Of a stretch of 64,000 bases of DNA, positions 10,386 through 31,248 are shown in pieces. Every line of letters begins with the position of its first letter. Position 1 is the stretch's first letter. This DNA is from Candidatus Harrisonbacteria bacterium (lineage in GTDB: Bacteria > Patescibacteriota > Minisyncoccia > UBA6257 > 1-14-0-10-40-38), in contig JAHFLD010000001.1 of NCBI GenBank assembly GCA_023245035.1, positions 83,285 through 147,284 of the forward strand, given 5' to 3'. The notes beneath the pieces were generated by a model. The model was given only the letters and a program-made list of their open reading frames with translations. It was not told the DNA's origin and did no database searches. A program made the position numbers and the translations under genes.

Positions 10386-11192
10386 TTGGCTAGCTCAAAT
10401 CCGCTAGTACCGGATTTCACCGCGAAAGGACTCTCTACGGCCGCTGATACCGGCATCGAAACGAACGTCTGGAAGCGCTTCTTTGATCTGATTGCAATGA
10501 TCATGAAGCTCGTCCGCGACGGCAAGCGCGAACTGGAAGATGTTTGCGACGCGATCCAGCTCATCCGCGATCGCGCGGATTTTGCCACAGCCTTCAAGGC
10601 CTTCCTCGCCTCCCGCGCCCTTGGCGCGAAGCCCGAGGCAACTCCTTCTGCAGGTTTTACCTCCATCTGGAGGCAGGTCTACGCCAAGCTCGGTGTAACA
10701 GCCGACTTCTCGGGGCTCACGATCGAAGACCGCCCCGGATACTGGCCGATTGTGGTCCTTACTGGCATGACCCCGCAAAAGATCATGCAGGCCATTAGGG
10801 AGGCGAACCTCTTCCAAACACGGCAGTACGCTCCCGATCTTGATATTGCTGTCATGGAGAACGACCGCGACCCCAAGACTGGATCCTACGTCGTCTACGT
10901 CAAGGCAACTCAAGAAGCCGATCCCGAGCTCAAGAATCTCTCGGCAAACGAGCTGAAAGATCGAAAGATTCAAGGCATCACGATCCTAGAGCGCATCCTC
11001 CTTGAGGTCTTCTACTTCATCCTCTCAGGCGGGAAACATCTCGACCCCATAACCGTGACCTTTTGCACCGGTTCGCGGGACTCCGGCGGCCATGTACCGA
11101 GCACGGGCTGGCTCAATCACACGGTCCGCGTCTATTACTGCTTTTCCGGCCTTCGGTATGATGGTGTTCGTGCTCGTGCAGTAGTTTCGTAG
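10386..11192 (+). CDS. hypothetical protein encoded in a compositionally atypical (GC-rich, high GC3) segment
   Basis: ORF of up to 268 aa (TTG at 10386; first ATG at 10497). No family recognised. Has its own upstream promoter and a terminator directly after the stop. A 189-aa ORF overlaps it on the opposite strand, as expected for a GC-rich shadow. Confidence 0.45.
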   Translation: MASSNPLVPDFTAKGLSTAADTGIETNVWKRFFDLIAMIMKLVRDGKRELEDVCDAIQLIRDRADFATAFKAFLASRALGAKPEATPSAGFTSIWRQVYAKLGVTADFSGLTIEDRPGYWPIVVLTGMTPQKIMQAIREANLFQTRQYAPDLDIAVMENDRDPKTGSYVVYVKATQEADPELKNLSANELKDRKIQGITILERILLEVFYFILSGGKHLDPITVTFCTGSRDSGGHVPSTGWLNHTVRVYYCFSGLRYDGVRARAVVS

Positions 11193-12759: not shown

Positions 12760-13956
12760 ATGCATTATAAAATCAAAAATTCAATCTATCTAGATTACGC
12801 CGCCTCAACCCCTCTCGCCCTAGAGGTGGCTAAGGCCATGGATGGTTGTCGGTCCAACTTTGGCAATCCCGGGTCTTTGCATCTCCTGGGTCAACGTGCC
12901 ATCTCCTTGCTCGATGAGGCGCGTCAAACCATCGCCCAAAACCTCGGCGCCAATTTTAACGAAATTATTTTCACCGGATCGGCAACCGAGGCCAACAATC
13001 TGGCGCTCCGCGGCGCGGTCAAGCTTTTCCGCCAGAAATTTCCCAAAGTCAAACCGCATCTTATAGTTTCTTCTCTTGAACACGAATCAGTCCTCGCAAC
13101 CGCTAAAGATTTGGCGACTGAAGGAGTGGGTCTCACAATTTTGGGCGTCTCGCGAGAGGGAGTTGTTAATCTCGAGGAGCTTTTACTCGCGCTCCGGCCA
13201 AATACGGTCCTGGTTTCCATTATGCACGCCAACAACGAAACCGGCGTCATCCAGCCATTGTCTAAAATCGCGGAGATTATTGAGCAATTTCGCCAAGACC
13301 ACAAAAAAACAAAACACGGCGAAAATCGTTATCCCTTATTGCACACCGACGCCGCGCAAAGCCTGCAATTTATCAAGTACGATCTAAAAAATCTTGGCGT
13401 TGATTTGCTGACCATCTCGGCCCAAAAAATCTACGGCCCCAAGGGCGTCGGCGCGCTCTATGTAAAAAGAAAGAAGTTAAACCCAGATATTTTAAGTCCG
13501 GTTATAACCGGCGGGGGACAAGAATATGGCCTCCGTTCCGGCACCGAAAATATTTCCGGCATTGTCGGCTTTGCCCGCGCCATAAATCTCGCGGCCAAAT
13601 TGCGAGCAACCGCGACCAAGCGCCTGACCAAACTCCGTCTTGAATTTGAGTCGGGGCTTAAATCTTTACCGCGCGAAGTGACGATTCATTCGGAGCAAGC
13701 CCCGCGCTTGCCACACATCGTGAGTTTTCGTCTGCCGGGTGTCAGCAACGAAAAAGCGCTCATTAAACTTGATCAAGCTGGCATCTGCTTGGCCACCGGA
13801 CCGGCCTGCTCCAGCCGATCGCACGCCCCATCGCATGTCTTGCTGGCCATGGGCCTTACCGAGCAGGCGGCTAAAGAAAGTTTACGCGCAAGTTTCGGAC
13901 GCGACACCGACATCCAGGCAGTCCAAGCAACCCTCCAAGTCATCGGTCGGTTATAA
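12760..13956 (+). CDS. cysteine desulfurase (class V aminotransferase, NifS/IscS family)
   Basis: IYLDYAASTP, the PLP-lysine region (TISAQKIYGPKGVGALYV) and the catalytic Cys loop (ATGPACSSRSHAPSHVL). Start at the internal ATG of the 12715 ORF. Confidence 0.85.
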   Translation: MHYKIKNSIYLDYAASTPLALEVAKAMDGCRSNFGNPGSLHLLGQRAISLLDEARQTIAQNLGANFNEIIFTGSATEANNLALRGAVKLFRQKFPKVKPHLIVSSLEHESVLATAKDLATEGVGLTILGVSREGVVNLEELLLALRPNTVLVSIMHANNETGVIQPLSKIAEIIEQFRQDHKKTKHGENRYPLLHTDAAQSLQFIKYDLKNLGVDLLTISAQKIYGPKGVGALYVKRKKLNPDILSPVITGGGQEYGLRSGTENISGIVGFARAINLAAKLRATATKRLTKLRLEFESGLKSLPREVTIHSEQAPRLPHIVSFRLPGVSNEKALIKLDQAGICLATGPACSSRSHAPSHVLLAMGLTEQAAKESLRASFGRDTDIQAVQATLQVIGRL

Positions 13957-13979: not shown

Positions 13980-15230
13980 ATGCTAAAAATTAATCAAAAT
14001 TTCAAAAAAAACCTCTACTTCACGACAAGTGTGCTCTTGATGGGTTTTCTGCTTGGCATTCTAAGCCATGGCCCCGCGGCACAAGCAAGTTTTCTGGATC
14101 GCATTTTTGGGCGCTCGCCAAATACTGGCCAAATATTGACGCCATCGCCAATTATCAAATACGAGTCCCGGATCGACTATGAAACGGCGATTGTAAAAGC
14201 AGTCGAGGAGAGCGCGCCGGCTGTTATCTCCATAATCATCAGCAAGGATCTTCCGGTTATCGAGAATTGTCCATACGATCCGTTTTCCAATATCCCGCCA
14301 GAATTTCGCGATTTTTTTGGCGGCGGTTTTTCTTTTAATCGTCCATGTCAGAAGGGGACTAAGCGTCAGGAAATTGGCGGCGGCTCGGGCTTTATAGTTT
14401 CGCCTGATGGGCTGATTTTGACCAATAAGCACGTTGTCTCTGATAAAGAAGCTGAATACACCATTCTGGCCAATGATGGTAAAAAATACGCCGCCAAAGT
14501 TCTCGCCCGCGATCCGGTCCAAGATTTGGCCCTGGTCAAATTCGTCAATCCACCTGCTAATCTTAAAAGTGTCAGACTAGGCAATTCAGAAAGTCTCAAA
14601 CTCGGCCAAACCGTCATTGCCATCGGTAATGCTCTCGGTGAATTTAGGAATACGGTCTCCCAAGGAATAGTCTCCGGCCTTTCCCGCAATATCACGGCCA
14701 ACGGCGGTGGGTCTAGTGAAAGAATCGAGGGTTTGATTCAAACCGACGCGGCTATCAACCCGGGCAATTCTGGCGGTCCGCTTCTTAATTTGCACGGAGA
14801 GGTGATTGGTATCAACACTGCCGTCGCCGAGGGGGCGCAAAATATCGGATTCGCGATTCCCATTAATAAGGCCAAGCACGATATTGACTCAGTTAAATCA
14901 ACTGGAAGCATTTCAGCGCCTTATCTCGGCGTCCGCTATATCGAAATCACTCCAGAGTTGGCTGAAAAGGAAAAACTTCCCGCATCCACGGGCGTCATAG
15001 TTCGCGGGAATTCCGATGGTCCTGGCGTAATTCCAGATTCTCCAGCCGGAAAAGCCGGCATTTTGGCGGAAGATATAATTTTGGAAGTTAACGGCGAAAA
15101 AATATCCGCCGAAACCTCGCTCTCAAATCTGGTCCAAAAATATCAACCCGGGCAAACAATCGTCATTAAATTAAACCGGCAAAAGCAAAACCTGCAAATC
15201 AGAGTTGTCTTAGGCGCCCACCCGGAATAA
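13980..15230 (+). CDS. htrA: HtrA/DegP-family serine protease (trypsin-like domain plus PDZ)
   Basis: N-terminal membrane anchor. Catalytic His region (GSGFIVSPDGLILTNKHVV), Ser region (GNSGGPLLN) and a C-terminal PDZ domain. Confidence 0.85.
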   Translation: MLKINQNFKKNLYFTTSVLLMGFLLGILSHGPAAQASFLDRIFGRSPNTGQILTPSPIIKYESRIDYETAIVKAVEESAPAVISIIISKDLPVIENCPYDPFSNIPPEFRDFFGGGFSFNRPCQKGTKRQEIGGGSGFIVSPDGLILTNKHVVSDKEAEYTILANDGKKYAAKVLARDPVQDLALVKFVNPPANLKSVRLGNSESLKLGQTVIAIGNALGEFRNTVSQGIVSGLSRNITANGGGSSERIEGLIQTDAAINPGNSGGPLLNLHGEVIGINTAVAEGAQNIGFAIPINKAKHDIDSVKSTGSISAPYLGVRYIEITPELAEKEKLPASTGVIVRGNSDGPGVIPDSPAGKAGILAEDIILEVNGEKISAETSLSNLVQKYQPGQTIVIKLNRQKQNLQIRVVLGAHPE

Positions 15231-15300
15231 TCTTCGCCATGCCGGCGGGTGGGGATAACCATACGATTGAGCTCTTGGCAATAGAGAGTACAATCAGATA

Positions 15301-15594
15301 ATGGAACTAAATCGCAAAAGTTTTTGGATCGCCATGGTCGTGGTTTTTTTGTTATGCGTAGCTCTCCTCTATGTGTTCGTGGTTAAACAACGAGAAGCGG
15401 CTAAAGTTGCCGGATTACAAAAAGAAGTCGGAAAGCAGGCTGAACAATTTAAAGCGGCGCTCCAAAAAGCGCAACAGCAAACCGAAGTCAGCTTACCCTC
15501 CACCAATCCTCTGGGCAACGTCGTCCCCAAGGTCAGTCCGCTAGATAAGGTTAATCCCTTTAAAAACAATGCTTACCAAAATCCCTTTGAGTAA
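15301..15594 (+). CDS. small membrane-anchored coiled-coil protein, unknown function
   Basis: One TM segment (FWIAMVVVFLLCVALLYVFVV) followed by a charged helix. 97 aa. Overlaps the next gene by 26 nt. Confidence 0.4.
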   Translation: MELNRKSFWIAMVVVFLLCVALLYVFVVKQREAAKVAGLQKEVGKQAEQFKAALQKAQQQTEVSLPSTNPLGNVVPKVSPLDKVNPFKNNAYQNPFE

Positions 15595-17554
15595 ACGCTG
15601 GCTAATCGCCGCGCCGGCGATTATCGCCGCCTTGCTGATTGCCGGAAGCGCCTCGGCCCTTTCGGTTTTTGATATTGAGTTTCCCATCGCTGAACTCGGC
15701 AATTGTGCCGATAAAACCGCCTGCAAAGCCTATTGCGCCGATCCGGAAAACCAAACTGCTTGCCTTGAATTCGCCAATAAATTTGGCATCAACCAGTCGT
15801 CAGCGGGACCAAAAACAACCGTTCGCGACGAGGGTAATCAGGGCGGTGGCATTAATGTCGCGAAAGCCAAAGCGGCGATTGCCGAAGACGGCGGCCCCGG
15901 GCAATGCGGCTCTTTTGAGAAGTGCGGCGAATTTTGCGGGCAGGCCGTGAACGCGCAAACTTGCGCGGAATATGGCACGAAGCACGATTTATTTAATGGT
16001 CAGCAAAAGGAAGAAGCTAGGAAGGTCGGAGAGGCTCTTAGGGGTGGCGCCAAACTTCCCGGCGGCTGTCGTGACCGCGAGTCTTGCGAAAAAACCTGTT
16101 CGGATCCGTCAACACTCGCCATCGCCAAAGAATGTATTCAATTTGCTCGTGCCGCCAATTTGGAGAATGCCGGCGATTTAGATAAAGCTGAAAAATCCTT
16201 AAACTCTCTGGATAGCCGGGACAATTCTATCGGCAATGACTTCCGCAAGTGTCAAAAACCCAAAGACGAGGCCACCTTAAAAAAATGTATTGATTTTGCG
16301 GAAAAAAACGGCTTTATATCCCCGGAAGAAGCTGCTTTGGTCAGAAAAACCGGTGGCAAAGGTCCGGGTGGTTGTTTTGGTGAAGAATGCCGAACCTATT
16401 GCAACGGCGAAGATCACGCCGAGGAATGTCAGCGTTTTGCCGAAGAAAATGGCCTGGTGACTGCGGAGCAGAAACAACAACGCGAAGAAGGCAAGCAAGC
16501 CATCCGGAATAGCTTGCAGAATGCGCCCGCCGACGTTAAAGAATGCCTAACCGGCACCGTTGGAGCCGAAAAAATACAAGGACTCTTATCAGGCAACGGC
16601 CAACCAACCCAAAGTCTGGGTAGCGCCATCCGTCAGTGTTTTGAATCCAGCGCTAAGGCCATGAGAGAGCGGAACGATGAATTTAATCAGCCAGACAACG
16701 AGGATCAAAAACCAGCCAATTTTGAAAACAACAACCAGGGCCAGTCTGCCGGCGACCAAAAAAGTCGCGGCTTCGGAAATTCCGGCCCGGGGCGAAACTT
16801 TCCGCCATGCGCCTCCGAAGATGAGTGTCAGGCAATGAGAAAAAAAATGGAATCAGAAAATGGGGGCGAGGGGAGTCAGTTTCCAACCCGGAATCCCGGA
16901 AATTTTTTAAGGCCAGGCAATGAAAACAGTGATCAGAGTCAAGGCGACGCCATGATGAAGGGTAATGGCTCGGTGCCAAAAATGAGGCCGCGATTTATGG
17001 GTCAGCCTGGTAAGTTGGATGATTTAAATCCGGAGGGTCAGTTTAACCAAGGATCAAATCGCTTTCCGGGAATGGAACGAGAGGAGATGATGAAAAAAGA
17101 AGAATCAATGCCAAGAGTGGAAATGATGAAGGGTCAAAATCAAAATTTTCCCGGACAATCGCAATTTGGACCAGACCAGCAAGGTCAGATGCCGAGGCCA
17201 ATGTCCGGACCGGGACAATCCTTTGGGCCGAACCAGCCATTTCCTACAAACCCCGATCGACAATTTTCGGGGCAATCATCCGGTATGGGTAACTTTAATG
17301 GTCAGCCAATGATGGGGCCACCAGGTGGAGAAGGTAATTTTTCTTCGGGTAATTCTGGCGGAATGATGTCTCCGCCAATGGGTGGCTCCTTTCCTATGAG
17401 CGGACCTTCCGGCGGGTCAATGCCAAGCGCGCCTTCCGGAGGAATGCCTCCGCCACCTGGCTCCGGCAGTATGCCGCCACCGCCCTCCGGCGCCCTTCCT
17501 ACCAAGAATTTTTTCGGCTTTCTTCTCGAGCCATTTCTTCAATTATTTCAGTAA
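15569..17554 (+). CDS. secreted protein with about 6 tandem four-cysteine modules followed by a ~300-aa Met/Gly/Pro/Gln/Asn-rich low-complexity region
   Basis: Signal peptide. Repeated C-x5-C-x3-C-x8-11-C-x2-FA modules (for example CADKTACKAYCADPENQTACLEFANKFG and CFGEECRTYCNGEDHAEECQRFAEENG). The C-terminus is full of MxxM-like and PPPP runs, with no recognisable fold. Confidence 0.6.
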   Translation: MLTKIPLSKRWLIAAPAIIAALLIAGSASALSVFDIEFPIAELGNCADKTACKAYCADPENQTACLEFANKFGINQSSAGPKTTVRDEGNQGGGINVAKAKAAIAEDGGPGQCGSFEKCGEFCGQAVNAQTCAEYGTKHDLFNGQQKEEARKVGEALRGGAKLPGGCRDRESCEKTCSDPSTLAIAKECIQFARAANLENAGDLDKAEKSLNSLDSRDNSIGNDFRKCQKPKDEATLKKCIDFAEKNGFISPEEAALVRKTGGKGPGGCFGEECRTYCNGEDHAEECQRFAEENGLVTAEQKQQREEGKQAIRNSLQNAPADVKECLTGTVGAEKIQGLLSGNGQPTQSLGSAIRQCFESSAKAMRERNDEFNQPDNEDQKPANFENNNQGQSAGDQKSRGFGNSGPGRNFPPCASEDECQAMRKKMESENGGEGSQFPTRNPGNFLRPGNENSDQSQGDAMMKGNGSVPKMRPRFMGQPGKLDDLNPEGQFNQGSNRFPGMEREEMMKKEESMPRVEMMKGQNQNFPGQSQFGPDQQGQMPRPMSGPGQSFGPNQPFPTNPDRQFSGQSSGMGNFNGQPMMGPPGGEGNFSSGNSGGMMSPPMGGSFPMSGPSGGSMPSAPSGGMPPPPGSGSMPPPPSGALPTKNFFGFLLEPFLQLFQ

Positions 17555-17578
17555 ATCAGGGCTTGTAATCCCTCTATC

Positions 17579-17610
17579 AAAACCCCTCCAACGAGGGGTT
17601 TTGAATTTTG
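17579..17610 (+). terminator. rho-independent terminator
   Basis: aaaacccctc caac gaggggtttt followed by gaattttg, just after the 15569..17554 stop. Confidence 0.6.
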
Positions 17611-17685
17611 CCGAGTTGACAGGAAGAGATAAATGCTTAAATTTGAAATTTCAGTTAAGCCGTGCTATTATCATAAAAAATCACC

Positions 17686-20328
17686 ATGAAATCATTCAAT
17701 CGCTTCACTATTAAAGCCCAAGAGGCCCTGCAAAACGCCCAAGAGCTGGCCGCGCAAAGAAATCACGGCGAGTTCAAAGCCGTTCACTTGCTTTCTAGTC
17801 TTCTTGGCGACGAACAATCCCTGGTTCGCCCCATCTTGATTAAAAGCGGAGTCAATTTGGAGACCTTGTACGCCGCCATCGAAGAGGAACTGCAAAAATT
17901 GCCGAAAATTTTTGCCACCGGCAATGTCGGCCAACTCTATTTGTCCCAGGAATTGATGCAGGTGCTGGAAAAGGCCGGCAAAATCGCCCTCAATCAAAAA
18001 GATGAGTTTGTCTCTTGCGAACACCTTCTGTTGGGAATCTTGGAATTGCCTTCAACCGCCCAAAAACTTTTGGAAAAATTCGGCATCCGGCGCGACAATG
18101 CCTTGCGGATCCTCGCCCAACTTCGCGGTTCGATGCGCATTACCGACGAAACGCCGGAGAGCAAGTTCCAAGTTTTGGAAAAATACGCCATCAATCTCAC
18201 CGATCGCGCCCGTGAAGGCAAGTTGGATCCGGTCATTGGCCGAAACGAAGAATTGCGCCGGCTGATTCAGGTTTTGTCTCGCCGCACGAAAAACAACCCG
18301 GTACTAATCGGCGAACCGGGCGTCGGCAAAACCGCCATTGTTGAAGGACTGGCTCAACGTATCGTCTCCGGAGACGTTCCCGATAGTCTCAAAGACAAGG
18401 AGGTTATTATGCTGGATTTGGGATCGCTCATTGCGGGAACCAAATTTCGCGGTGAATTTGAGGATCGGCTCAAAGCTTTTATTAAAGAAGTTCAAAACTC
18501 CGCCGGCCGGATGATTTTATTTGTTGATGAAATCCACATGATTGTCGGCGCCGGCGCCGCCGAAGGCGCGATTGACGCCTCCAATCTTTTGAAACCGCCG
18601 CTTGCGAGGGGCGAACTCCACGCCATCGGCGCTACTACGATTCGTGAATACCAACGCTATATCGAAAAAGACCCAGCGCTCGAGCGGAGATTCCAGCCGA
18701 TTATCGTTGAAGAGCCGGAGCCCGAAGACGCTCTCGCTATTTTGCGCGGCTTAAAAGAAAAATACGAAATTCACCATGGCCTCCGCATTAGCGACGAAGC
18801 GCTCGTTGCCGCCGTACAACTCTCGGCGCGCTATATTACCGACCGCTTTTTGCCGGACAAGGCCGTTGATTTGATTGATGAAGCGGCCGCTGCCAGGCGC
18901 TTGGAATCCGAAAGCGTGCCGGTGGAAATAGACAAATTGCGCCGCGATATTACCCGGATGGAGATCGAAAAATCAGCTCTGCTCAAAGAAACCTCTGCCA
19001 AAAATAAAGAGCGGCTTAAGATAATTGAAAAGGAATTATCGGCGCTCAAGGAGAACAACGACGAACTCTCCGGAGGTTGGCACGCCGAAAAAATCGCCTT
19101 TGAGAATCTCCACAATCTGCGTCGGCGCATTGAAGATTTACGACGCCAGGCGGAACTAGCCGAACGCGCCGGCGATTTGGAAAAAGTCGCCCAAATACTC
19201 TACGGTGAACTGCCAAAAACCGAAAAAGAATACGAAGCTCTGGAGAAAAAACGCCTCAAAACGGTCAAGGGCAAAAACGCCGACAAAACCGAAAAATTCA
19301 TTAAAGAAATGGTGGACGAGGAAGATATCGCCGGCGTTGTCTCGCGCTGGACCGGCATTCCCATAACTCGGATGCTGGAATCCGAAACCGAAAAACTGGC
19401 CCGCATTGAAGATGTCTTGACCAAGCGGGTTATCGGTCAAGAATCAGCGATAGCCGCCGTTTCTAACGCCCTGCGCCGCGCGCGCGCCGGTCTCGCCGAC
19501 GAAACCCGACCCTTGGGATCCTTTATGTTTCTTGGCCCAACTGGTGTTGGAAAAACCGAACTCGCGCGGGCTCTCTCCGAGTTTATGTTCAATGACGAAA
19601 AAGCCATGGTGCGAATTGATATGTCCGAATATATGGAGCGCCACGCCACCGCGCGTCTTATCGGTTCCCCTCCGGGTTATGTTGGTTTTGAAGAAGGCGG
19701 CCAGCTAACCGAAGTAATTCGCCATCGCCCATATAGCCTGATCTTATTTGATGAGGTGGAAAAGGCCCATCCGGAAGTGTTTAATATCCTTCTGCAAATT
19801 CTCGACGAGGGCCGTCTGACCGATGGCAAAGGCAAGACCGTCAACTTCAAAAACAGCATCATTATCATGACCTCCAATGTTGGCAGTCATTACTTCAAAG
19901 AGATGTCCAACATCGGTTTTGCGACCGTCAGCAAAAATGAGGCCAACGACAAGGAAGACTCCTTCAAACGCAAGGTTAATGATTCTCTCCGCCAGACCTT
20001 CAAGCCCGAGTTCTTAAACCGCATCGACGAGATTATTATTTTCAACGCCTTGCGGGAGTCGCAGATTGAGCAGATTGTTGAAGTGCAATTAGTCGCGCTC
20101 AAGGAAAAGCTTGGAGAGCGAGGCATTAAAATATTGATTGATAACGGGGTCAAAAAATATATCGCCGAACACGGATTTGACGCCGATTTCGGCGCGCGCC
20201 CCATTCGGCGCCTGATCCAAAAAGTGATTCTGGACAAACTTGCCGACAGAATTATCAAGGGCGAACTTAAAGATGGCGACAAAATTAAAATCTCTTCTTC
20301 GGGGGCTGCGATTACCATTACTCCTTAA
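17686..20328 (+). CDS. clpB: ATP-dependent chaperone ClpB (two AAA+ modules with a coiled-coil middle domain)
   Basis: Clp N-domain; Walker A ([15 protein letters not shown]) in NBD1; the long coiled-coil M domain, which distinguishes ClpB from ClpA/ClpC; NBD2 Walker A ([14 protein letters not shown]) and sensor region. 880 aa. Confidence 0.95.
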
Positions 20329-20350
20329 CGCCGCTCTATTTGCCGGTGGT

Positions 20351-21019
20351 TTGTTCATTGTCTATCTGGTGGGGCTTGATTGGCTGGCTGCCGCCTTGTT
20401 TTTGTTGCTTGCGATTTATCTCTACAGCCATCCCAAGGGCAACTTGGCAACCACCTCCATAATTGGAATTGCCGCCGTTGTCATCAATCTGGCACTGATG
20501 AGTTATGTCACCTCGCCTCTAGCCGCCCTAAGTCTTGCCGCAATGGGCGGCGTTCTTTGGTGTCTTATTATCGGCATAAAAAATGTTGAATTTTTGGAGC
20601 GGCGCGAGTGGCATCTATTTGCCACGGACACGGTTATCTATGGAGTGCTGGTTTTATTTTTTCTTGCTAATCAAACAGTTTTTTCGGTAATTAATATCCT
20701 GGCATTGGCCGGGTTTGCCTATCTCGTTCACCGAGAATTGCTTAAAGATTATTTTGCTGAATCGGTTAAAAAACCGGATCTTGCTTTAGCCTCGGGAATT
20801 TTAAGTTTGATCGCCGTCAAAATTGCCTGGGTGGCTAGCCTCTTGCCCCTAGGATTTATCAGTGACGTTAACGCGGTTATGATTACCTTGCTTTGCGCCC
20901 AAAACTTGATTATCCGCAAATTAGAAAATCGACTGACTGCTCGTTTTACTCTCTTGCAGATCTCATTTTTTGGCTTGGCGATGCTCTTAATCGCCGGTAC
21001 CACAAGCTGGTCCTTGTAA
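20351..21019 (+). CDS. polytopic membrane protein of unknown function
   Basis: At least 6 predicted TM helices. The ORF track opens at 20240 inside clpB. The start is placed at the first in-frame TTG after the clpB stop and is uncertain. Confidence 0.45.
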   Translation: MFIVYLVGLDWLAAALFLLLAIYLYSHPKGNLATTSIIGIAAVVINLALMSYVTSPLAALSLAAMGGVLWCLIIGIKNVEFLERREWHLFATDTVIYGVLVLFFLANQTVFSVINILALAGFAYLVHRELLKDYFAESVKKPDLALASGILSLIAVKIAWVASLLPLGFISDVNAVMITLLCAQNLIIRKLENRLTARFTLLQISFFGLAMLLIAGTTSWSL

Positions 21020-22331: not shown

Positions 22332-25300
22332 ATGAGTAAAACACTAACAAGCAAAATTACCTCCGTCGTCCTTTCTGTGGCGACGTTGGCCCTTTTTGCC
22401 GGCTCGATGCTTCCTAAAGCTGAAGCCGCTATGTCAGTGGCCGATCTCCAAGCGCAAATCGCCGCATTGCAGGCTCAGTTGTCTGCGCTCGCCGGTGGTT
22501 CTTCCACGCCAGCAACGTCATGCACCTTTTCCAGCACCCTCACTGTTGGAGCCAAGGGAAGTGCCGTTACTTGTTTGCAGAACTACTTAACGAGCACTGG
22601 TGACTATACCCACAGCGGTGGCGCGACGGGATACTTTGGTAACATTACCAAAGCCGCGGTCGCTTCATGGCAGTCTAAGCACGGAGTGTCTCCGGCAGCG
22701 GGCGTTTTTGGCCCAATCTCTCGAGCAAAATACAGTGAGTTACAGGCGGTTGCGGTAACCCCGACACCGACCCCAACTCCAGGCCCGGTAGCCGCTGGAA
22801 CGGGTTTAACCGTTTCTTTGGCCTCCGATCAACCGGCCCAAGGGCTGTTTGGCGAGAGCTTTGCCAGCCGTCCGTTTACCAAGCTCAACCTCACCGCCTC
22901 TTCGGATGGCGATGTGACGGTTAAGAAAATCGTTGTTGAGCGCGTTGGTCAGTCAGCCGATGCCGTTTTCTCCGGCGTTATCGCCTTGGATGAAAATTAC
23001 ATCCGCTATGACCGATCCAAGACGTTTGGCTCCGACCACACCTTGAGCTTGACCCCAAGCATCTTGGTGAAAGCCGGTCAAACCAAAACAGTCTATATCG
23101 CCGGTGATTCCGACAACAACCAAGATGCCTACAACGGCCAATTGGCCGCTTTGCAGGTTAAATCAGTTGATGCCGGTACTGCTACGGTTAATGGCTCCTT
23201 CCCAATGGTTGGAACCACGATGACTGTTAACAGCACGCTAGCGATCGGATCCGCGACTCTTACCCGAGGAACTCTGGATCCAGGTGTCAGCCAGACTAAA
23301 GAAGTCGGTACCACCGGATACACCTTCTCCGGTATTCGTATTAGCGCCGGTTCCAACGAAGACATTACCGTGAAAGCGGTAAAGTTCCTTCAGAGTGGTT
23401 CGGCTAGTGCGAGCGATCTAAGCAATGTCCAGGTCGTTTTGGATGGAACCTCTTACCCGGCCCAACTTTCTTCGGACGGCAAGTATTACACCGCGAACTT
23501 CGGTTCCGGCCTCTTCATCCAGAAGGGTCTGCAGAAAGAAATGTCAATCAAGGGTGATGTCATCGGCGGATCAAACCGCACGGTTGACATGAACCTTGAC
23601 TACTACGAAGATCTCCGAATCGTGGGCGCGACCTATGGCTATGCCATTACGCCGTCTGCCACCGATTCCGGTGACTCCGCGACGGACAACGATGGAACCT
23701 TCCAAGCATCCAACCCGAACTACGATGGCTATCTAGCCACCATTGGAACAGGAACGATGAACGTTACCAAGGCTAACTCGGTAACAGCTCAAAACATCGC
23801 GATTAACCTCGCTGATCAGGTTTTGGGAGGCTTTGATTTTGACGTCAAAGGTGAACCAATCACGATTGCGACCCTGCGCTTTAGCTTGGCCCCAAACAGC
23901 GGTAGCTCTGCCGACACAGCTGACATCACCAATGTCAAGCTCGTCCGTGCTGATGGTACTGTTGTTGCCGGTCCGGTTGATGCCGTAGCTGGTGGCACCA
24001 ACGCGGTTGTCTTTACCGATACCGTCACCTTCAATCCGGGCATTACCACCTACAAGCTCATCGGTAAACTGGGAACCGATTTCACCAACAACAACACGGT
24101 GACGGCTTCCACAACTCCTGGCAGTAACTGGTCCACGATTCGTGGCACGGTGAGCAACATCTCACTGACCCCGACTCCGTCCGGAGCGGTTATCGCCAAC
24201 ACGATGACCGTTAAGGCGGCTGCTCTCTCGGTCTCGGTCTCCCCGATTCCGTCAGCGCAGACAATCGTTGCTGGCTTGAACGGATTCAATTTCGGCAACT
24301 TCGTCTTTGACGCGAGTGGTTCCGGTGAAGATGTCCGCACGACCTCTTTCCAGCCACAAATATCCTTTGGTCAGTTAAACACCGCGGACGACCTCCGCGC
24401 CTGTCAGTTGTTTGATGGCGCAACTGCCTTGAACACCGGCACGAACATCGTGAACCCAGGCAATAGCGTCGCGAACCAAGATAACGTGACTTTCACGCTT
24501 GATTCCGGGGTCATTATTCCCAAGGGTTCGGTCAAGACTTTGGCCTTGAAGTGTAACGTTTCCGCTACAACTACGTCGGTCTCGACGGTTGCCGGAACGA
24601 TTAACTACACCTTTGCTTGGGGTCTTGGTTCTGGAGCTTCTGCCGCCAACACGGCAGTCACAACTGGCTTGACCTCTGGTCAGACCGTAACTCCAACCAT
24701 CAACACCAACAATGGTCAGAACATCAGTGTTGTGGCGAGCGGCACGCTCTCCATCGCGCTTGATTCCTCGAGTCCCGGCGCCCGATGGGCGGCTGGCGGC
24801 ACGACCGACAATGTCTTGAACGTCCTCCGCATCACAACTGGCGCGGAAGATGTGAACTTGACTCAAATCGGCTTGATCTTGGGTGGTGGTGCTTCCAACA
24901 CTCCGCAGGATTTGACGAAAGTCACCCTGTGGGATGGCGATGCCGCTACTCCGACCAAAGTTGGTGAAGTAGTCTTCTCTACGGCTGATATCGCGACCGC
25001 CACAATCTCCGGAATGATTATTCCGAAGAACAGCGACCGCAAATTGGTCATCAAGGGAGATATTGGCGCCTTCGGCGTCGGTGCGCCGGCTAAACCCGGT
25101 CACTTGGTACGAGTTGAGTATTGGTACGCCTCTGGTGACACTTCCGGTAATGGTACACGTGGCACCGGTTTGAGCTCTGGTAACTTCATTTACTCGGGCA
25201 CAACCGCGAGCACGACTGCTTCCGGTGGTGTGTATATCGCCAAGTCGTATCCGATCCTGACTCCGATCGCCTTACCGACCAACAAGCTGATTGCCGGAAC

Positions 25301-25997
25301 ACCGGCCATCTATCGCTTCTCGGTCACTGCTCCGTCAACGGGTGGAGTTGGACTTTATAAGTTCAGCTTCCGCACGGCGACCGCAGGTGGTACTACGGCT
25401 GTTTCTTACCAAGTCACCAACTTCCAGACCTGGGGCTACTCCGATTCGGCGTTCTCCATTCCGGCATATGGTTCGACTGGTCTCTTGAACAGCTCTGATC
25501 TAGTAACTGCGTCAAGCACGGCAACGGGCTACGCCATCGACGATTCGGCTAACCAGGCAGGAAGATTTACCATCTTCTTCAACCCGGTTGCCGGCAGCGG
25601 CACGACCAATGAGGCGATTCAGGTCCCAGCCGGACAGACTCGCTACTTTGAGGTCAAAGCCAACGTTGCTGGTGTCAGCGCTTCAACGACATTGAGCACC
25701 CAGCTTGAGGGCGACATTCAAACCCTTTATGCGAAGGATGCCGCGGATACATTTACCTCCGGCAACTACTCCTTCGCCACTACGGCCGCTTATGTTGCTT
25801 CTAGCACCATATTCGGTACCGAAGGCGCGGGCGGTGATGGCGTACTCTTGAGTGGATCAGGGGATGTCAGAAACGACTTCATTTGGTCCGACAACGCGAC
25901 GACCACTTCCGGTGTTGCGAACTACGACTGGATGAACGGCTACTTGGTTCCTGGCTTGCCGGGCACCAACATGTCATCTCAGACGCTCACCCCCTAA
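22332..25997 (+). CDS. giant secreted Thr/Ser/Gly/Ala-rich surface protein with an N-terminal peptidoglycan-binding (PG_binding_1-like) domain; S-layer/adhesin-like
   Basis: Signal peptide, a coiled-coil heptad (LQAQIAALQAQLSAL), a PG-binding-like domain (TCLQNYLTSTGDYTHSGGATGYFGNITKAAVASWQSKHGV), a TPTPTPTP linker, then ~1000 aa of Cys-free beta-rich low-complexity sequence. 1221 aa. Confidence 0.8.
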   Translation: MSKTLTSKITSVVLSVATLALFAGSMLPKAEAAMSVADLQAQIAALQAQLSALAGGSSTPATSCTFSSTLTVGAKGSAVTCLQNYLTSTGDYTHSGGATGYFGNITKAAVASWQSKHGVSPAAGVFGPISRAKYSELQAVAVTPTPTPTPGPVAAGTGLTVSLASDQPAQGLFGESFASRPFTKLNLTASSDGDVTVKKIVVERVGQSADAVFSGVIALDENYIRYDRSKTFGSDHTLSLTPSILVKAGQTKTVYIAGDSDNNQDAYNGQLAALQVKSVDAGTATVNGSFPMVGTTMTVNSTLAIGSATLTRGTLDPGVSQTKEVGTTGYTFSGIRISAGSNEDITVKAVKFLQSGSASASDLSNVQVVLDGTSYPAQLSSDGKYYTANFGSGLFIQKGLQKEMSIKGDVIGGSNRTVDMNLDYYEDLRIVGATYGYAITPSATDSGDSATDNDGTFQASNPNYDGYLATIGTGTMNVTKANSVTAQNIAINLADQVLGGFDFDVKGEPITIATLRFSLAPNSGSSADTADITNVKLVRADGTVVAGPVDAVAGGTNAVVFTDTVTFNPGITTYKLIGKLGTDFTNNNTVTASTTPGSNWSTIRGTVSNISLTPTPSGAVIANTMTVKAAALSVSVSPIPSAQTIVAGLNGFNFGNFVFDASGSGEDVRTTSFQPQISFGQLNTADDLRACQLFDGATALNTGTNIVNPGNSVANQDNVTFTLDSGVIIPKGSVKTLALKCNVSATTTSVSTVAGTINYTFAWGLGSGASAANTAVTTGLTSGQTVTPTINTNNGQNISVVASGTLSIALDSSSPGARWAAGGTTDNVLNVLRITTGAEDVNLTQIGLILGGGASNTPQDLTKVTLWDGDAATPTKVGEVVFSTADIATATISGMIIPKNSDRKLVIKGDIGAFGVGAPAKPGHLVRVEYWYASGDTSGNGTRGTGLSSGNFIYSGTTASTTASGGVYIAKSYPILTPIALPTNKLIAGTPAIYRFSVTAPSTGGVGLYKFSFRTATAGGTTAVSYQVTNFQTWGYSDSAFSIPAYGSTGLLNSSDLVTASSTATGYAIDDSANQAGRFTIFFNPVAGSGTTNEAIQVPAGQTRYFEVKANVAGVSASTTLSTQLEGDIQTLYAKDAADTFTSGNYSFATTAAYVASSTIFGTEGAGGDGVLLSGSGDVRNDFIWSDNATTTSGVANYDWMNGYLVPGLPGTNMSSQTLTP

Positions 25998-26150: not shown

Positions 26151-26879
26151 ATGAAACCCGATTATAAAAAAATATTCCTTGTTATCGTTGGCATCGCCGT
26201 CACGGCATTAATTTCGGCGTACGCCGTAACTCAAATCAGGCTCAAACTTATTTTTGGCGATCTGCCACCCTATCGCGGTGAGCGCCTTGAATACATTGGT
26301 CCTGGGGACGAGTTTACAAAAACCCTGCCTAAAGCGGCCGTAGAAAAAAGAACCCAAGAACTCGCCGGTCTTAAAAAGCAAATCTACGCCAATCCAAAAG
26401 ACTACAATCTCTGGATCCAGGCCGGCATTCTCAAAAAGTTCTTTAATAACTACGAAGGTGCCCGCGACGTCTGGGAGTATGCCATTGTCGTTGATCCCAA
26501 AATATCACTGGCCTATTTTAATCTTGGAAATCTCTACGAATACTATCTCAAAGATTTTGCCAAAGCGGAAGCAAATTACCTGAAAGCTGTGGAAATTGAA
26601 GGTCGCGTCGCCGCGCAATATCACATTGCCCTCGCCGATTTTTATGATATTTCCTATGTTGAGAAAAAAAACGAAGTTGAAAAAGTGTTGTTAAATGGAA
26701 TCAACCTAATACCCCACGATGCCAGCCTCAAAGTTCGCCTGTCTGCTTATTACGAAAAGCAAGGCGATGTGCCAAAAGCAATTCAATATTTGAAAGTGGC
26801 TATAATCGACGACCCATCGCTAATTGAGGTTCAGAAAAAACTTCAGAATTTAGAATCTTCTGCTAGCAGGCGAAAATAA
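26151..26879 (+). CDS. membrane-anchored TPR-repeat protein
   Basis: N-terminal TM helix. TPR-like repeats (AYFNLGNLYEYYLKDFAKAEANYLKAVEI). Confidence 0.55.
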   Translation: MKPDYKKIFLVIVGIAVTALISAYAVTQIRLKLIFGDLPPYRGERLEYIGPGDEFTKTLPKAAVEKRTQELAGLKKQIYANPKDYNLWIQAGILKKFFNNYEGARDVWEYAIVVDPKISLAYFNLGNLYEYYLKDFAKAEANYLKAVEIEGRVAAQYHIALADFYDISYVEKKNEVEKVLLNGINLIPHDASLKVRLSAYYEKQGDVPKAIQYLKVAIIDDPSLIEVQKKLQNLESSASRRK

Positions 26880-28045
26880 AGTGTCTGCGTCCTCTGGTAC
26901 ATCTCTTTGAGTGAAAAAGATTGTTCGATCCTCTGCCACAAGGCGTGACCAAGATCTTGCCGCGTCGTAGTATTGTTAGTGAGTTTTATAATTTCCAACG
27001 CGAGCGCCGCTGGATTTTTTGGAGGAACTAAAAGACCGTTCTCGTGGTTGCTGATGATTTCCGGTATGCCGCCGACTCGACTTGCGACAACCGCTCGCCC
27101 AGCTATGCCGGCCTCCAAAAGAAAATAAGGCAATCCTTCCTTTAAAGACGGCATCGCGATTATGTCAAAAGCTCGGAGATGTTTTGAGGCTTCGCTAACA
27201 TAAGGCCTAATAAAAAAACGATCCGCGAGTCTGGCTTCGGTAATTAAGCGAGTTAATAGTTTTTCCTCTGGGCCTCCGCCGAAAATTGCAAAATAAAGAT
27301 TAAATCCAGGGTTCTGCTTAAATACCAAAGCCGCCGCCCCCACTAAATAACGCAGTCCCTTGTTGGCGTAGAAATGAGAAATAGTCCCGACAAGTATCGC
27401 GTTGGGTGGTAAATCTAGTCCCAGTTTTCTGCGAGCCTCTGCCTTGTCTAAAAGAGTCTTTGAATCGGAATCAATGCCGTTGTGAATAGTTTTTAATGCG
27501 CCCCTGTTCGCGATGTGGTATTTTAAAGCCGAAGCTCGATCAAAATCCGAAACGCAAATAATCGCGTCCCTAAAAAATCGAGCCGCGAACTCCAATGGTA
27601 TATAAATCAGTTTTTTCCAAATTCCCGGCTCGTTGAAGGGGAATCCATGCGCGGTGTAAACGCATCTTGCTCGCGAAAAAGCTCGGCGGTTATAAAGATA
27701 GACGCCGTATGGTCCAAAAATTCCGGCATTGGTGCTGTTGAAATGAACCAGGTTTGGGGCTAACTTTTGTAAAAGCTTCTTAAGTTCCAATGAGAAGAGC
27801 AGGTTCTCAAACGGGTTTAAAGAACGGCGCAAATGATTTAAGGTGAAAACCGGAATGCCGTACTCCATAAGCCGGTGAACTAATTCACCCCGATGACGCG
27901 CTCCGCAGACCACGCTTACGCGATAACCCGGCTGGCTAGAAAAATAAACCGCCAAATCAAAGACATAGCGTTGAGCGCCGCCCCAACTCCCCTGGGTAAT
28001 GACATAAACTATGTGGCGAGACTTCTCATTTTTGTCCAAAGGCAT
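26843..28045 (-). CDS. glycosyltransferase family 4 (GT-B)
   Basis: N-terminal donor/acceptor-domain motif (ITQGSWGGAQRYVFDLA) and C-terminal EX7E-type motif (EGLPYFLLEAGIAGRAVVASRVGGIPEII). Confidence 0.85.
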   Translation of the reverse strand: MPLDKNEKSRHIVYVITQGSWGGAQRYVFDLAVYFSSQPGYRVSVVCGARHRGELVHRLMEYGIPVFTLNHLRRSLNPFENLLFSLELKKLLQKLAPNLVHFNSTNAGIFGPYGVYLYNRRAFSRARCVYTAHGFPFNEPGIWKKLIYIPLEFAARFFRDAIICVSDFDRASALKYHIANRGALKTIHNGIDSDSKTLLDKAEARRKLGLDLPPNAILVGTISHFYANKGLRYLVGAAALVFKQNPGFNLYFAIFGGGPEEKLLTRLITEARLADRFFIRPYVSEASKHLRAFDIIAMPSLKEGLPYFLLEAGIAGRAVVASRVGGIPEIISNHENGLLVPPKNPAALALEIIKLTNNTTTRQDLGHALWQRIEQSFSLKEMYQRTQTLYFRLLAEDSKF

Positions 28046-28065
28046 TTAAATAGATAAACCCTATT

Positions 28066-29235: not shown

Positions 29236-29241
29236 AATTTG

Positions 29242-29853: not shown

Positions 29854-30026
29854 AAAATAGATTATGCTATTAAATTCTGACTTTAGTCAAAAATAGCGTG
29901 AGATATGATCTCAATAGGACTCGTAAAAACAAAAGCTAGTCTTTTGGTGACTTTTCTATAAATGTCCATAGTTCAACAGAATATCCATGGGTATCATCAA
30001 AGCCAAAATTTAGAATTAGAAAAGGC

Positions 30027-31217: not shown

Positions 31218-31248
31218 CGTCTCGGAATATATTTGCTACAATTAAGGT

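Follow-up and report, generated by a model that had tools for sequence, protein, structure and literature searches.

What does a secreted, Cys-rich protein with a long low-complexity tail do, and which of the genes around it belong with it? These questions are raised by the 661-aa product of a gene in the window, the whole stretch of 64,000 nucleotides that was analysed. An original prediction, made from the DNA letters, had raised copper or silver binding as a possibility and had placed the gene in an envelope operon with HtrA.

The Cys-module protein and its family

The gene call of the original prediction was borne out: the 661-aa open reading frame is real, and its product is identical to database protein P0001. 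Across the region encoding the tail there is one stop in the annotated frame against 6–13 in the other five frames, and the tail is kept in the 66%-identical homologue P0002. The tail is therefore not a frame artefact, and the objection that the low-complexity half might be frame-ambiguous falls. The protein consists of a signal peptide, the modules, a tail of ~230 aa and an amphipathic C-terminus of 15 aa, a layout that recurs across 120 homologues. Its features are as follows.

15569..17554, + strand: large gene, encoding the 661-aa exported Cys-module protein
15569..15658, + strand: putative signal peptide, aa 1–30, read from the sequence
15704..15787, + strand: module 1, aa 46–73, C46-x5-C52-x3-C56-x8-C65-x2-FA, with a conserved D-I-x-F-P-x-x-E-L-G-N lead-in before it
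15905..15976, + strand: module 2, aa 113–136, GPGQ-C113-x5-C119-x3-C123-x8-C132-x2-YG
16067..16159, + strand: module 3, aa 167–197, long-loop form C167-x5-C173-x3-C177-x11-C189-x2-FA
16250..16312, + strand: half-module, aa 228–248, C3-C4 pair only, C228-x11-C240-IDFAEKNG
16373..16453, + strand: module 4, aa 269–295, C269-x4-C274-x3-C278-x8-C287-x2-FA
16463..16684, + strand: non-module helical "cap", aa 299–372, with a C326/C357 pair; conserved, AP-x-[ED]-V-x-x-C-L ... R-x-C-F-E
16799..16861, + strand: short helix, aa 411–431, with a lone C-x5-C (C414/C420); predicted helix 417–430, pLDDT ~80
16862..17506, + strand: low-complexity P/G/S/Q/N/M-rich tail, aa 432–646; predicted disordered, pLDDT 30–53, no secondary structure
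17507..17554, + strand: C-terminal amphipathic segment NFFGFLLEPFLQLFQ, aa 647–661, and stop codon

Secretion, as predicted, is supported by a signal peptide of the n/h/c type, with K4, K9 and R10 in the n-region, WLIAAPAIIAALLIAG as the h-region and SASA followed by LS in the c-region; cleavage would fall between ASA and LS. A hydrophobic N-terminal segment was found in 246 of 258 family members.

The protein had been described as carrying about six four-Cys repeats, with the string CADKTACKAYCADPENQTACLEFANKFG, which is aa 46–73, as the example. The repeat module stands but its number does not, since four complete modules (Cys spans aa 46–69, 113–136, 167–193, and 269–291) and two half-modules were identified. 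Likewise, the first spacing of C-x5-C holds in three modules and is x4 in the fourth. The x11 variant of module 3 occurs 47 times in the family, and a near-invariant KTGGKGPGG lies directly before module 4. The total number of Cys in the protein is 22.

The AF2 model, built with a 106-sequence alignment, had a pLDDT of 83.5 and was all-alpha, with a regular pattern of helices A, B, and C in each module. In the full-length model, aa 33–380 had a pLDDT of ~90 and aa 432–661 were below 50. The helices of module 1 (49–57 and 59–72) were above 90, and the cap region, in which P320 and C326 are nearly invariant, was at 91–97. The conserved non-Cys residues of the module (P, G, G, Y, F, A, and G) are turn or core residues. 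This, together with the variable number of modules, suggests a structural rather than a catalytic role.

Among the 120 homologues we found 689 modules, of which 481 are exactly C-x5-C-x3-C-x8-C and 493 are then followed by x2-FA; the pattern is far beyond chance. The number of modules varies from 3 to 13 across the family. At 50% identity the family forms 1,890 clusters, and 249 species genomes were retrieved with the motif TGG[KR]GPGGC (a sub-alignment around KTGGKGPGGC). Where a record names the lineage, the name points to Patescibacteria (Parcubacteria/Paceibacterota). The large protein had no match in Pfam, NCBIfam (E≤1) or PDB sequences, and the module fold had no significant match in PDB/BFVD fold searches, in agreement with the earlier impression that the module is not a recognised domain. 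The lectin domain Laminin_G_3 was found in six family members and Kazal in three, the Kazal domains being separate C-terminal inserts. The window protein itself matched neither Kazal nor the defensin-like family (AtDEF-like, PF25052); three homologues scored 25.6–28.1 bits in the latter, for which the cut-off is 25, with part of the match falling on the signal peptide.

Some known helical proteins resemble the module. Helicobacter Hcp proteins, with disulfide-bridged Sel1-like alpha/alpha repeats, are also secreted tandem helical repeats with intra-repeat disulfides, which for our family are putative. However, there was no Sel1/TPR-like HMM or fold match, and the unit here has four Cys, three helices, ~50 aa, and the pattern C-x5-C-x3-C-x8-C. 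CHCH, twin-CX3C and alpha-hairpinin hairpins share a short disulfide-held helix-turn-helix with C-x3-C on one helix. In contrast to these, the family Cys pattern is asymmetric rather than twin CXnC and has no Pfam match, the likely pairing is C1-C2 with C3-C4 instead of a pair of bridges that join the helices through matched motifs, and the context is bacterial, exported, and multi-repeat. Large extracellular Cys-rich proteins of Peregrinibacteria (~1,655 aa), with a signal peptide, a proposed attachment role and weak similarity to Myxococcus Cys-rich repeats (PMC4736985), are likewise CPR proteins, but they differ in size, and neither the module nor an NPF partner is mentioned for them. A description of the Cys-module family was looked for in the literature and none was found.

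The family is defined by at least two modules of the form GPGG-C-x5-C-x3-C-x8/11-C-x2-FA-x3-G after a signal peptide, and by an immediately preceding gene in the same orientation whose small, single-TM product ends in NPF-x(5-7)-NPF. Both are present at the window locus. The Cys-module protein and its NPF partner represent a large, previously undescribed family.

The NPF partner and a probable transcription unit

The region around the large gene contains the following features.

13980..15230, upstream, on the same strand as the partner gene: htrA-like gene (Trypsin_2 + PDZ)
15267..15302, + strand: two sigma-70-like promoter matches that overlap each other, located between htrA and the small gene; consensus matches only
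15301..15594, + strand: partner gene, encoding a 97-aa bitopic membrane protein without Cys; overlaps the large gene by 26 nt
15505..15591, + strand: C-terminal tail of the partner, aa 69–97, NPLGNVVPKVSPLDKVNPFKNNAYQNPFE, with the motif NP-x5-P...NPF-x6-NPF-x
17577..17612, + strand: intrinsic-terminator-like hairpin with a 12-bp stem and a CAAC loop, then GAAUUUUG; between the cassette and clpB

A small membrane protein upstream of the large gene had been noted before, and its existence was confirmed (97 aa, single-TM); its role as a conserved partner had gone unnoticed. The TM helix covers approximately aa 8–28 (nt 15322–15384) and is followed by a polar, probably helical segment to about aa 62. 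In a 4-sequence alignment, P70, P76, N85-P86-F87, and N94-P95-F96 of the tail are invariant. We found 124 homologues of the partner at E≤1e-3. The protein ends with NPF plus at most two residues in 118 out of 120 of them and contains exactly two NPF in 113 out of 120, and the last residue is polar (E/Q/K/R). The K/R counts are equal on either side of the TM helix, and net charge alone favours N-in. The tail is probably extracytoplasmic, a topology weakly indicated by the sequence.

In 80 out of 83 loci the partner gene precedes the large gene in the same orientation, being directly adjacent in 77, and the two genes commonly overlap or lie within ~60 nt of each other. One locus (L072) has two copies of the whole pair. 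Among 347 proteins, none was a natural fusion ("Rosetta stone") of the small and large proteins. Unbiased clustering of the neighbouring genes showed none to be conserved except the NPF gene, the largest other clusters being antisense shadow ORFs of the large gene. The partner is the sole conserved neighbour of the large gene.

The htrA-like gene lies upstream of the small gene as predicted, ending 70 nt before it. The promoter-like matches in this gap are TTGAGC-16-TACAAT (9/12) and TTGGCA-16-GATAAT (10/12), compared with the sigma-70 consensus. Since TACAAT ends 7 nt before the ATG, the mRNA of the small gene could be leaderless. The hairpin downstream of the large gene had a dG of −19.6 kcal/mol and a z of −6.7, and 0 of 200 shuffles folded as well; promoter-like sites for clpB lie at 17616–17671. 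The promoter-like site and the downstream hairpin suggest that the cassette (15301..17554) is a transcription unit of its own.

The proposal that the large gene belongs to an HtrA envelope operon, co-transcribed with htrA, did not hold. HtrA was found in 0 out of 87 related loci. The closest relative locus (L008) has the same flanking genes, with 77–95% identity, but no htrA, and there the cysteine desulfurase gene is directly followed by the small gene. An HtrA/ClpB operon was thus rejected, with a promoter-like site upstream of the cassette and a hairpin terminator before clpB. It could still be argued that the cassette is an HtrA-linked envelope-stress component, with the Y-x-N-P-F tail of the small protein, or the large protein, as a PDZ ligand, substrate or regulator. 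The proximity and shared strand of htrA agree with this, as does the lack of a detected terminator between htrA and the small gene, and DegS/DegP-type PDZ proteases are activated by aromatic C-terminal peptides. But the small protein ends in a polar and not an aromatic residue, and with the promoter-like site in the gap and the missing htrA in related loci we regard this explanation as extremely improbable.

Cysteines, tail and C-terminus

The four Cys of a module might form disulfides or bind a metal. In the family, 46 modules have a two-Cys form in which C1 and C2 are lost together and C3-C4 is kept, and the window protein contains both a lone C-x5-C and a lone C-x11-C pair. These half-modules and lone pairs favour two independent disulfides. 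Most of the 120 homologues have an even number of Cys. Judged by the sequence pattern, the most likely arrangement is one pair of disulfides per repeat, C1-C2 and C3-C4. A VKOR gene adjoins the cassette in one locus (L006), while none was found in the 64-kb window, which is part of the genome. The alternative is that the four invariant Cys of each module bind Zn or an Fe-S cluster, which would make this a metal-stabilised or metal-storing repeat protein. Four invariant Cys within a core of ~25 residues would suit such a role, as would one loop position in the module that is often H (45%) or N (43%). However, the half-modules keep exactly C3-C4, as independent disulfides would allow, and no Zn-ribbon or ferredoxin family match was found in Pfam or NCBIfam. 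The protein is also Sec-exported, and an MdbA-like thiol-disulfide oxidoreductase family, often adjoining VKOR (in 88 of 750 CPR genomes; PMC6744442), is enriched among CPR bacteria. Metal binding by the modules is quite improbable in our judgement, and the earlier suggestion of disulfide-knotted modules is the one favoured by half-modules, lone Cys pairs, and export.

The second half of the protein is of low complexity, as had been predicted, and is predicted to be disordered (pLDDT <50). Its composition (aa 421–661) is G 17.6%, P 15.3%, S 10.7%, M 9.2%, and Q 8%; it has two PPPP runs, and the hydrophobic end that had been noted is NFFGFLLEPFLQLFQ. The tail had also been said to have MxxM-like spacing and to be a candidate for Cu(I)/Ag(I) binding, and neither claim survived our analysis. 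MxM and MxxM were both absent, with 2.4 of each expected (5,000 shuffles), and MxxxM occurred 3 times against 2.4 expected. In the family, it is the P/G/Q/N/S-rich tail that recurs (median 50% of residues) and not its Met content.

An envelope or periplasmic Cu(I)/Ag(I) binder, with the Met-rich disordered tail as the main site and the Cys modules as accessory binding domains, would resemble CusF, PcoE/SilE, the Met-rich insert of CueO, and CopC-type proteins in being exported and having a Met-enriched disordered segment. The tail is 9–10% Met with five MM pairs, the closest homologue (P0002) is 8% Met, and a CopA-like ATPase gene lies within 6 kb in 6 out of 88 loci. But the excess of MM pairs (5 against 2.4 expected, P=0.076, 5,000 shuffles) is not significant, and the window protein differs from the known binders in lacking MxM, MxxM, and His (0 in the tail), conservation of Met across the family, and a consistent cop linkage. 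Family tails have a median of 4.4% Met, with ≤2.5% in 29% of them and ≥8% in 19% only. The loci with CopA vary in distance and orientation and have tails of 2–6% Met, and no CopA homologue was found in the window. We therefore consider copper or silver binding very improbable for this protein, and at the family level it is largely refuted. The other role that had been suggested for the tail, a wall-spanning spacer, is the one that the evidence favours.

The C-terminal motif of the family is P-x-S-[FL]-L-[GA]-x-h-h-x-x-h-x-x-h-h-G-R, usually with a single R or K at the very end. Stretches free of charged and polar residues are short here, the longest in each protein having a median length of 7 aa and never exceeding 15, so this segment is not a TM helix. 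In the model the C-terminal helix is short, of low confidence, and not docking. It was present in 54 out of 76 partner-positive loci and missing in 22, where the partner is nevertheless kept, and it therefore cannot be essential. When an HMM of the C-terminus was searched against 2,280 ORF segments (954 kb), we obtained 39 family matches and ~3 plausible others, two of which were family fragments or paralogues. A general C-terminal sorting signal was rejected, the motif being private to the family.

The overall layout recalls the sortase-anchored LPXTG proteins of Gram-positive bacteria, which also have a signal peptide, tandem repeats, a Pro/Gly-rich spacer, and a C-terminal hydrophobic segment, often with a basic end. 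However, the large protein has no LPXTG-type motif and no sorting-signal match in NCBIfam or Pfam (E≤1); the window protein carries LPTKN, which is not conserved in P0002. Its C-terminus is amphipathic, its own motif, P-x-S-[FL]-L-[GA], is not common to many substrates, and a dedicated small membrane partner is present instead. E. coli PBP5/DacA is an exported protein anchored by a short amphipathic C-terminal helix, and by analogy the helix found here could rest flat against the outer leaflet of the cytoplasmic membrane. The two are unrelated in sequence, and in our family the helix is missing from 22 out of 76 partner-positive loci.

A putative surface scaffold

Taken together, we give about an even chance to the explanation that the two genes form an envelope cassette specific to Patescibacteria lineages. 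Its product would be a surface scaffold of disulfide-stapled helical repeats, held in place by the partner and, in the majority of members, also by a spacer and amphipathic helix of its own. The first gene would yield the small bitopic membrane protein, whose short tail, ending in NPF-x6-NPF, would be outside. The second product would be exported via Sec and its signal peptide removed. Its N-terminal two-thirds would form a row of three-helix repeats of ~50 residues each, with C1 in the GPGG loop, C2 and C3 one turn apart on helix A, and C4 on helix B just before the F-A core. With two disulfides per repeat, the window protein would have 11 disulfides and be a rigid rod or scaffold that depends on oxidation. 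The tail, rich in P/G/S/Q/N, would serve as a flexible spacer of sufficient length to span the cell wall, and the C-terminal amphipathic helix may rest flat against the outer membrane face or a different surface. Anchored in the membrane, the NPF partner would offer the module region a conserved site for tethering or docking. That the NPF tail and the helix act as tethers is, like the surface role, what we infer from these features. With repeats, spacer, and anchors so assembled, a stiff helical-repeat stalk would therefore be shown at the cell surface. That some relatives carry Laminin_G_3 or Kazal suggests that the scaffold serves binding or adhesion and that the protein is neither an enzyme nor a metal binder.

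Two other explanations for the cassette were weighed against the tethered scaffold. It could be a housekeeping envelope-assembly factor, acting for example at the cell wall, S-layer or division site, and not an adhesin-like display scaffold. The family is broad across many Parcubacteria lineages, a class-wide conservation that fits equally well with such a factor; a few genomes have two family loci, two distant members adjoin the F-ATPase operon, and the window holds envelope genes. Yet a cell-wall or division gene is never a conserved neighbour, members differ widely in how many modules they have, and some contain inserted lectin or Kazal domains. The cassette also diverges much faster than its housekeeping neighbours: compared with L008, the large protein is 56% and the small protein 74% identical, whereas ClpB and two other neighbours are 90–95% identical, and such fast evolution would be typical of exposed proteins. 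We consider a housekeeping role unlikely. The same divergence would also suit a released effector, toxin or bacteriocin-like protein directed against hosts or competitors, with the small protein as an immunity factor or export helper and the amphipathic C-terminus and lectin/Kazal domains for targeting. In line with it are the two-gene layout, which pairs a small TM protein with a secreted Cys-rich one, the variable architecture, the accessory binding domains, and the amphipathic C-terminus. However, no toxin or enzymatic domain was found in Pfam or NCBIfam, and the conserved residues are structural. The wide distribution, stable gene order and invariant NPF tail are unlike those of polymorphic toxin-immunity pairs, and it is the small gene that precedes the large one, with the translation of the two coupled. 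This leaves the effector distinctly unlikely.

The tethered scaffold may be extended, tentatively and with considerable doubt on our part, to a so far unrecognised, non-covalent surface-display system specific to Parcubacteria-type CPR bacteria. The NPF-x6-NPF of a bitopic anchor would dock into the stapled stalk, as an alternative to sortase and LPXTG, and the fast-evolving stalk, sometimes with lectin or Kazal domains, would contact host cells or particles.

CPR/Patescibacteria make up a huge share of bacterial diversity, most of it uncultivated, and a life attached to other cells is presumed for them. To our knowledge, very few of their surface components are known. Our analysis removes the copper-binding and HtrA-stress-operon annotations, which could otherwise spread from the window locus. 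In their place stands a lineage-specific and abundant cassette (1,890 clusters, 249 species genomes) with a strictly conserved small partner. Its ~50-residue module, predicted to be disulfide-stapled, is a target for structure determination, the NPF-x6-NPF peptide is a target for binding assays, and the cassette offers a candidate surface marker with which these bacteria might be labelled or enriched.

Anatomy and family of the large protein

The cassette described here consists of a large gene encoding a Cys-module protein and a small gene encoding a protein with an NPF tail. The genes concerned, and the cysteine features of the large protein, are as follows.

13980–15230, HtrA-like protease gene (Trypsin_2 and PDZ), preceding the small and large genes
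15301–15594, + strand, small gene, 97-aa single-TM protein, 26-nt overlap with the large gene
15569–17554, + strand, large gene, ORF of 661 aa
17686–20328, ClpB gene, after the large gene
aa 46–69, 113–136, 167–193 and 269–291 of the large protein, complete Cys modules, C-x4/5-C-x3-C-x8/11-C-x2-[FY][AG]
C228-x11-C240-IDFAEKNG of the large protein, half-module with the last two Cys only
C326/C357 of the large protein, Cys pair
C414/C420 of the large protein, lone C-x5-C

The large protein has 22 cysteines in total. The original prediction had counted about six Cys repeats; the repeats are real, but only four units are complete and the rest are partial. The tail (aa 421–661) consists largely of G (17.6%), P (15.3%), S (10.7%), M (9.2%), Q (8%), F (7.7%) and N (7.7%), contains PPPP twice and ends in NFFGFLLEPFLQLFQ. 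It had been considered that this low-complexity half might be frame-ambiguous. However, the annotated frame is the only one open across the tail (1 stop, versus 6–13 in the other five frames), and the tail is retained in a homologue of 66% identity, so a frame artefact is excluded.

The large protein had no match in Pfam-A or NCBIfam, even at E≤1, and none among PDB sequences, which bears out the impression that its Cys module is unlike known domains. A homologue search with it returned 299 proteins at E≤1e-3, all labelled 'hypothetical', the few named ones being from Patescibacteria or Minisyncoccia. The best 120 of these 299 (all <1e-57) contained 689 modules, with exact C-x5-C-x3-C-x8-C spacing in 481 and x2-FA next in 493. 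The consensus is GPGG-C-x5-C-x2-Y-C-x8-C-x2-FA-x3-G-[LF]-x-[SP]-x-EE-x3-A-x-K, in which, apart from Cys, turn and core residues are conserved. We then searched a single 49-residue module profile against 1.84 billion representative proteins, a search proposed along with the prediction, and found 1,890 clusters at E≤1e-3, 1,639 at ≤1e-10 and 1,104 at ≤1e-30. The matched proteins were up to 1,555 aa long and had up to 13 matched stretches each; therefore the module is almost confined to multi-module proteins.

When one genome per species was scanned with the motif TGG[KR]GPGGC, relatives were confirmed in 249 species, including one complete genome (CP011209). Record titles that bear a lineage point to Parcubacteria/Paceibacterota, and the named groups were Lloyd-, Lipton-, Kaiser-, Sung-, Harrison-, Niyogi-, Jorgensen- and Wolfebacteria. 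Many cassette contigs (L008, L010, L016, L027, L056, L064, L066 and others among the related loci) are titled 'uncultured Candidatus Saccharibacteria' or 'Woesearchaeota / Nanoarchaeia / Pacearchaeota archaeon', which may be taxonomic mislabelling of MAGs. Long antisense 'shadow' ORFs opposite the large gene (L019 5235–6587 and L025 5350–7131, for example) recur in 33–47 loci and group by similarity; these arise as a side effect of the conserved repeat coding sequence and are not genes in their own right.

An AF2 model of aa 33–440, made with a 106-sequence alignment, was all-helical (mean pLDDT 83.5, pTM 0.59) with regular three-helix modules. In each module, C1–C4 being its four Cys in order, C2 and C3 sit on helix A (8–9 residues), separated by one turn; C4 and the F-A motif are on helix B (13–14 residues); helix C is a connecting helix; and C1 lies in the GPGG loop ahead. 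In a full-length model (80 sequences), aa 33–380 reached a pLDDT of about 90 and a short helix surrounded C414/C420, while aa 432–661 fell below 50, with no secondary structure except a low-confidence short helix at 654–660. Foldseek gave no significant fold match against PDB (best E 0.63, TM <0.2) or BFVD (best E 0.15).

The NPF partner and the putative transcription unit

The NPF-tail peptide of the 97-aa protein is KVNPFKNNAYQNPFE, and P70, P76, N85-P86-F87 and N94-P95-F96 are invariant in a 4-sequence alignment. We found 124 homologues of it at E≤1e-3. Members are 70–155 aa long with one TM helix; of 120 members, 115 lack Cys, 118 terminate in NPF with no more than two residues after it, and 113 contain exactly two NPF. 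Net charge (+2.3 versus +0.65) weakly favours an N-in/C-out topology, and the TM helix is preceded by a median of 6 residues.

The small gene lies upstream of the large gene on the same strand in 80 of 83 loci (77 directly adjacent, 3 about 600–700 nt off), and none was present in the other 3. Overlap of the two genes is frequent, and the 26-nt overlap of the window recurs in six cases. When every neighbouring ORF was clustered without bias, no conserved neighbour emerged besides the small gene, and no fusion of the two was found among 347 large proteins. One related locus, L072, has two tandem copies of the whole pair. At L072 912–5760, the first cassette holds an NPF gene and a 435-aa member; the second holds an NPF-like gene (end NPYKYVNPLR) and a 1,017-aa member that has additional N-terminal sequence and an inserted Laminin_G_3.

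The original prediction had regarded co-transcription with HtrA, in an envelope operon, as suggestive. Among 87 related loci, however, HtrA occurred in none and ClpB in 1. In L008, the closest relative, gene order is as in the window and flanking proteins are 77–95% identical, but the small gene comes directly after a cysteine desulfurase gene, 86 nt away, and htrA is absent. A sigma-70-like site also lies inside the 70-nt htrA–small gene gap of the window. We thus rejected the HtrA-operon reading: the true partner of the large gene is the small gene, not HtrA. The htrA gene at 13980–15230, missing from the matching position of L008 (2838–2924, the 86-nt gap), represents a recent insertion or deletion.

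A −10-like TACAAT (window 15289–15303) ends 7 nt 5′ of the small-gene ATG, which has no obvious Shine-Dalgarno; to judge from this arrangement, the cassette mRNA could be leaderless. A 12-bp hairpin (dG −19.6 kcal/mol, z −6.7) is located 23 nt past the large-gene stop, with a U-rich run after it, and two promoter-like sites lie between the hairpin and clpB.

Probable cysteine pairing and the composition of the tail

Of 708 C4 anchors, 657 had all four Cys, 46 retained C3-x11-C4 alone, having lost C1 along with C2, and a single module had an odd Cys pattern. The 46 half-modules are probably one orthologous module and hence not 46 independent events. In the large protein, a lone C-x5-C resembles the C1-C2 pair and a lone C-x11-C the C3-C4 pair. 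Such paired loss and lone pairs would be expected of two independent disulfides (C1-C2 and C3-C4), and not of an obligate four-ligand metal site. We therefore infer C1-C2 and C3-C4 as the likely pairing. The large protein is an exported one. CPR bacteria are reported to show enrichment of an MdbA-like thiol-disulfide oxidoreductase family, which adjoins VKOR in 88 of 750 CPR genomes (PMC6744442). A VKOR gene was found beside the cassette in one relative (L006).

The tail, described as Met-rich with MxxM-like spacing, had also been considered for possible Cu(I)/Ag(I) binding, with a cell-wall-spanning spacer as an equal alternative. It does contain 24 Met in 226 residues, and MM pairs numbered 5 versus 2.4 expected (P=0.076), but His was absent, MxM and MxxM were both 0 versus 2.4 each expected, and MxxxM was 3 versus 2.4. 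Nor is Met conserved in the family: in 100 family tails of at least 60 aa its median was 4.4%, with ≤2.5% in 29% of tails and ≥8% in only 19%. The conserved trait of these tails is their P/G/Q/N/S-rich character (median 50% of residues). A CopA-like ATPase lay within 6 kb in 6 of 88 loci, a frequency no higher than for other synteny blocks specific to a lineage (the S12-S7-EF-G operon, for example); the ATPase gene varied in orientation and distance, tails in those loci had 2–6% Met, and no CopA homologue was found in the window. The copper-binding reading was rejected on these counts, and the large protein does not belong with the Met-rich copper binders.

A candidate surface-display unit

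The family C-terminal motif is roughly P-x-S-[FL]-L-[GA]-x-h-h-x-x-h-x-x-h-h-G-R, with a terminal R or K in about half of the members; the peptide in the window is TKNFFGFLLEPFLQLFQ. The motif is amphipathic, and since its longest apolar run has a median of only 7 residues, it is not a TM helix. Against 2,280 ORF segments (~954 kb of Patescibacteria DNA, the whole window included), an HMM of the motif matched 39 family members and essentially nothing else, so that a general C-terminal sorting signal was rejected. The C-terminal helix is missing from the large protein in 22 of 76 partner-positive loci; therefore the conserved core is the modules and the NPF partner, and spacer and helix are frequent additions. 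A subgroup of the relatives (L011, L014, L032 and L040) lacks the amphipathic C-terminus and has a Cys-rich ending instead, such as ...SCSYVPPQFKDMCEKCKGE.

Six relatives carry Laminin_G_3 (ConA-like lectin) and three carry Kazal, two domains typical of extracellular binding. Between the window and L008, the large proteins share 56% identity and the small ones 74%, versus 94% for ClpB, 95% for an exonuclease-like neighbour and 90% for an RNase H-like neighbour. The cassette has thus diverged far more quickly than the housekeeping genes around it, and fast divergence is often seen in exposed proteins.

We propose that the cassette is a self-contained bicistronic envelope unit, and give this mechanism as a whole an even chance of being right. 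The large protein would be exported by Sec, with its signal peptide cut at ASA|LS. Extracytoplasmic oxidation would then form two disulfides stapling each three-helix repeat, giving a stiff helical-repeat rod. The disordered P/G/S/Q/N tail would serve as a wall-spanning spacer, with the amphipathic C-terminus on the membrane surface and the bitopic NPF protein as a conserved membrane tether. Rod and partner, once assembled, would show a binding scaffold at the cell surface.

Gram-positive LPXTG surface proteins similarly have a signal peptide, repeats, a Pro/Gly spacer and a hydrophobic C-terminal end, but the large protein lacks the motif, a TM-length segment and a shared signal, failing every defining test. 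Disulfide-stapled helices, a pairing putative here, are shared with Helicobacter Hcp/Sel1-like proteins and with CHCH or alpha-hairpinin hairpins, which nevertheless differ in Cys pattern and gave no sequence or fold match. The Cys-rich extracellular proteins reported from Peregrinibacteria are different from this family.

Other parts of the window also contained candidate envelope genes and ORFs without Pfam match.

10386–11192, 268-aa ORF without Pfam match
20240–21019, 259-aa multi-TM ORF without Pfam match
22332–25997, 1,221-aa ORF
26843–45795, envelope and glycosylation cluster: three GT4 glycosyltransferases, right-handed beta-helix protein, B12-binding radical SAM protein, PMT_2-type glycosyltransferase
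39685–41415, 576-aa ORF without Pfam match, in this cluster

The 1,221-aa ORF has a short PG_binding_1 near the N-terminus as its sole Pfam match; it is a large envelope protein with no other annotation. If its first start codon is used, the 259-aa ORF overlaps the clpB end by ~90 nt; it is conserved in L008 at 64% identity. Just upstream of the cassette in L006 (786–4277) are genes for an Ice_binding/CLIPPER_2 protein, a sortase and VKOR, and an F-type ATPase operon adjoins the cassette in L006 and in another relative, L002. The latter has an IS605 OrfB / Cas12f-like TnpB gene ~5 kb downstream (12831–13518). Near the cassette in two more loci (L003 9417–10115, L004 5568–6266), a 232-aa protein with a Kre9_KNH match and a weak Heavy_Cys_CGP match is a further exported protein rich in Cys.

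Searches of the literature turned up no account of the Cys-module family, which is real, well defined, equipped with a conserved partner and apparently undescribed. It falls within the general category of exported repeat surface proteins. The family does not upset current understanding, and is useful for the cell-surface biology of CPR bacteria.
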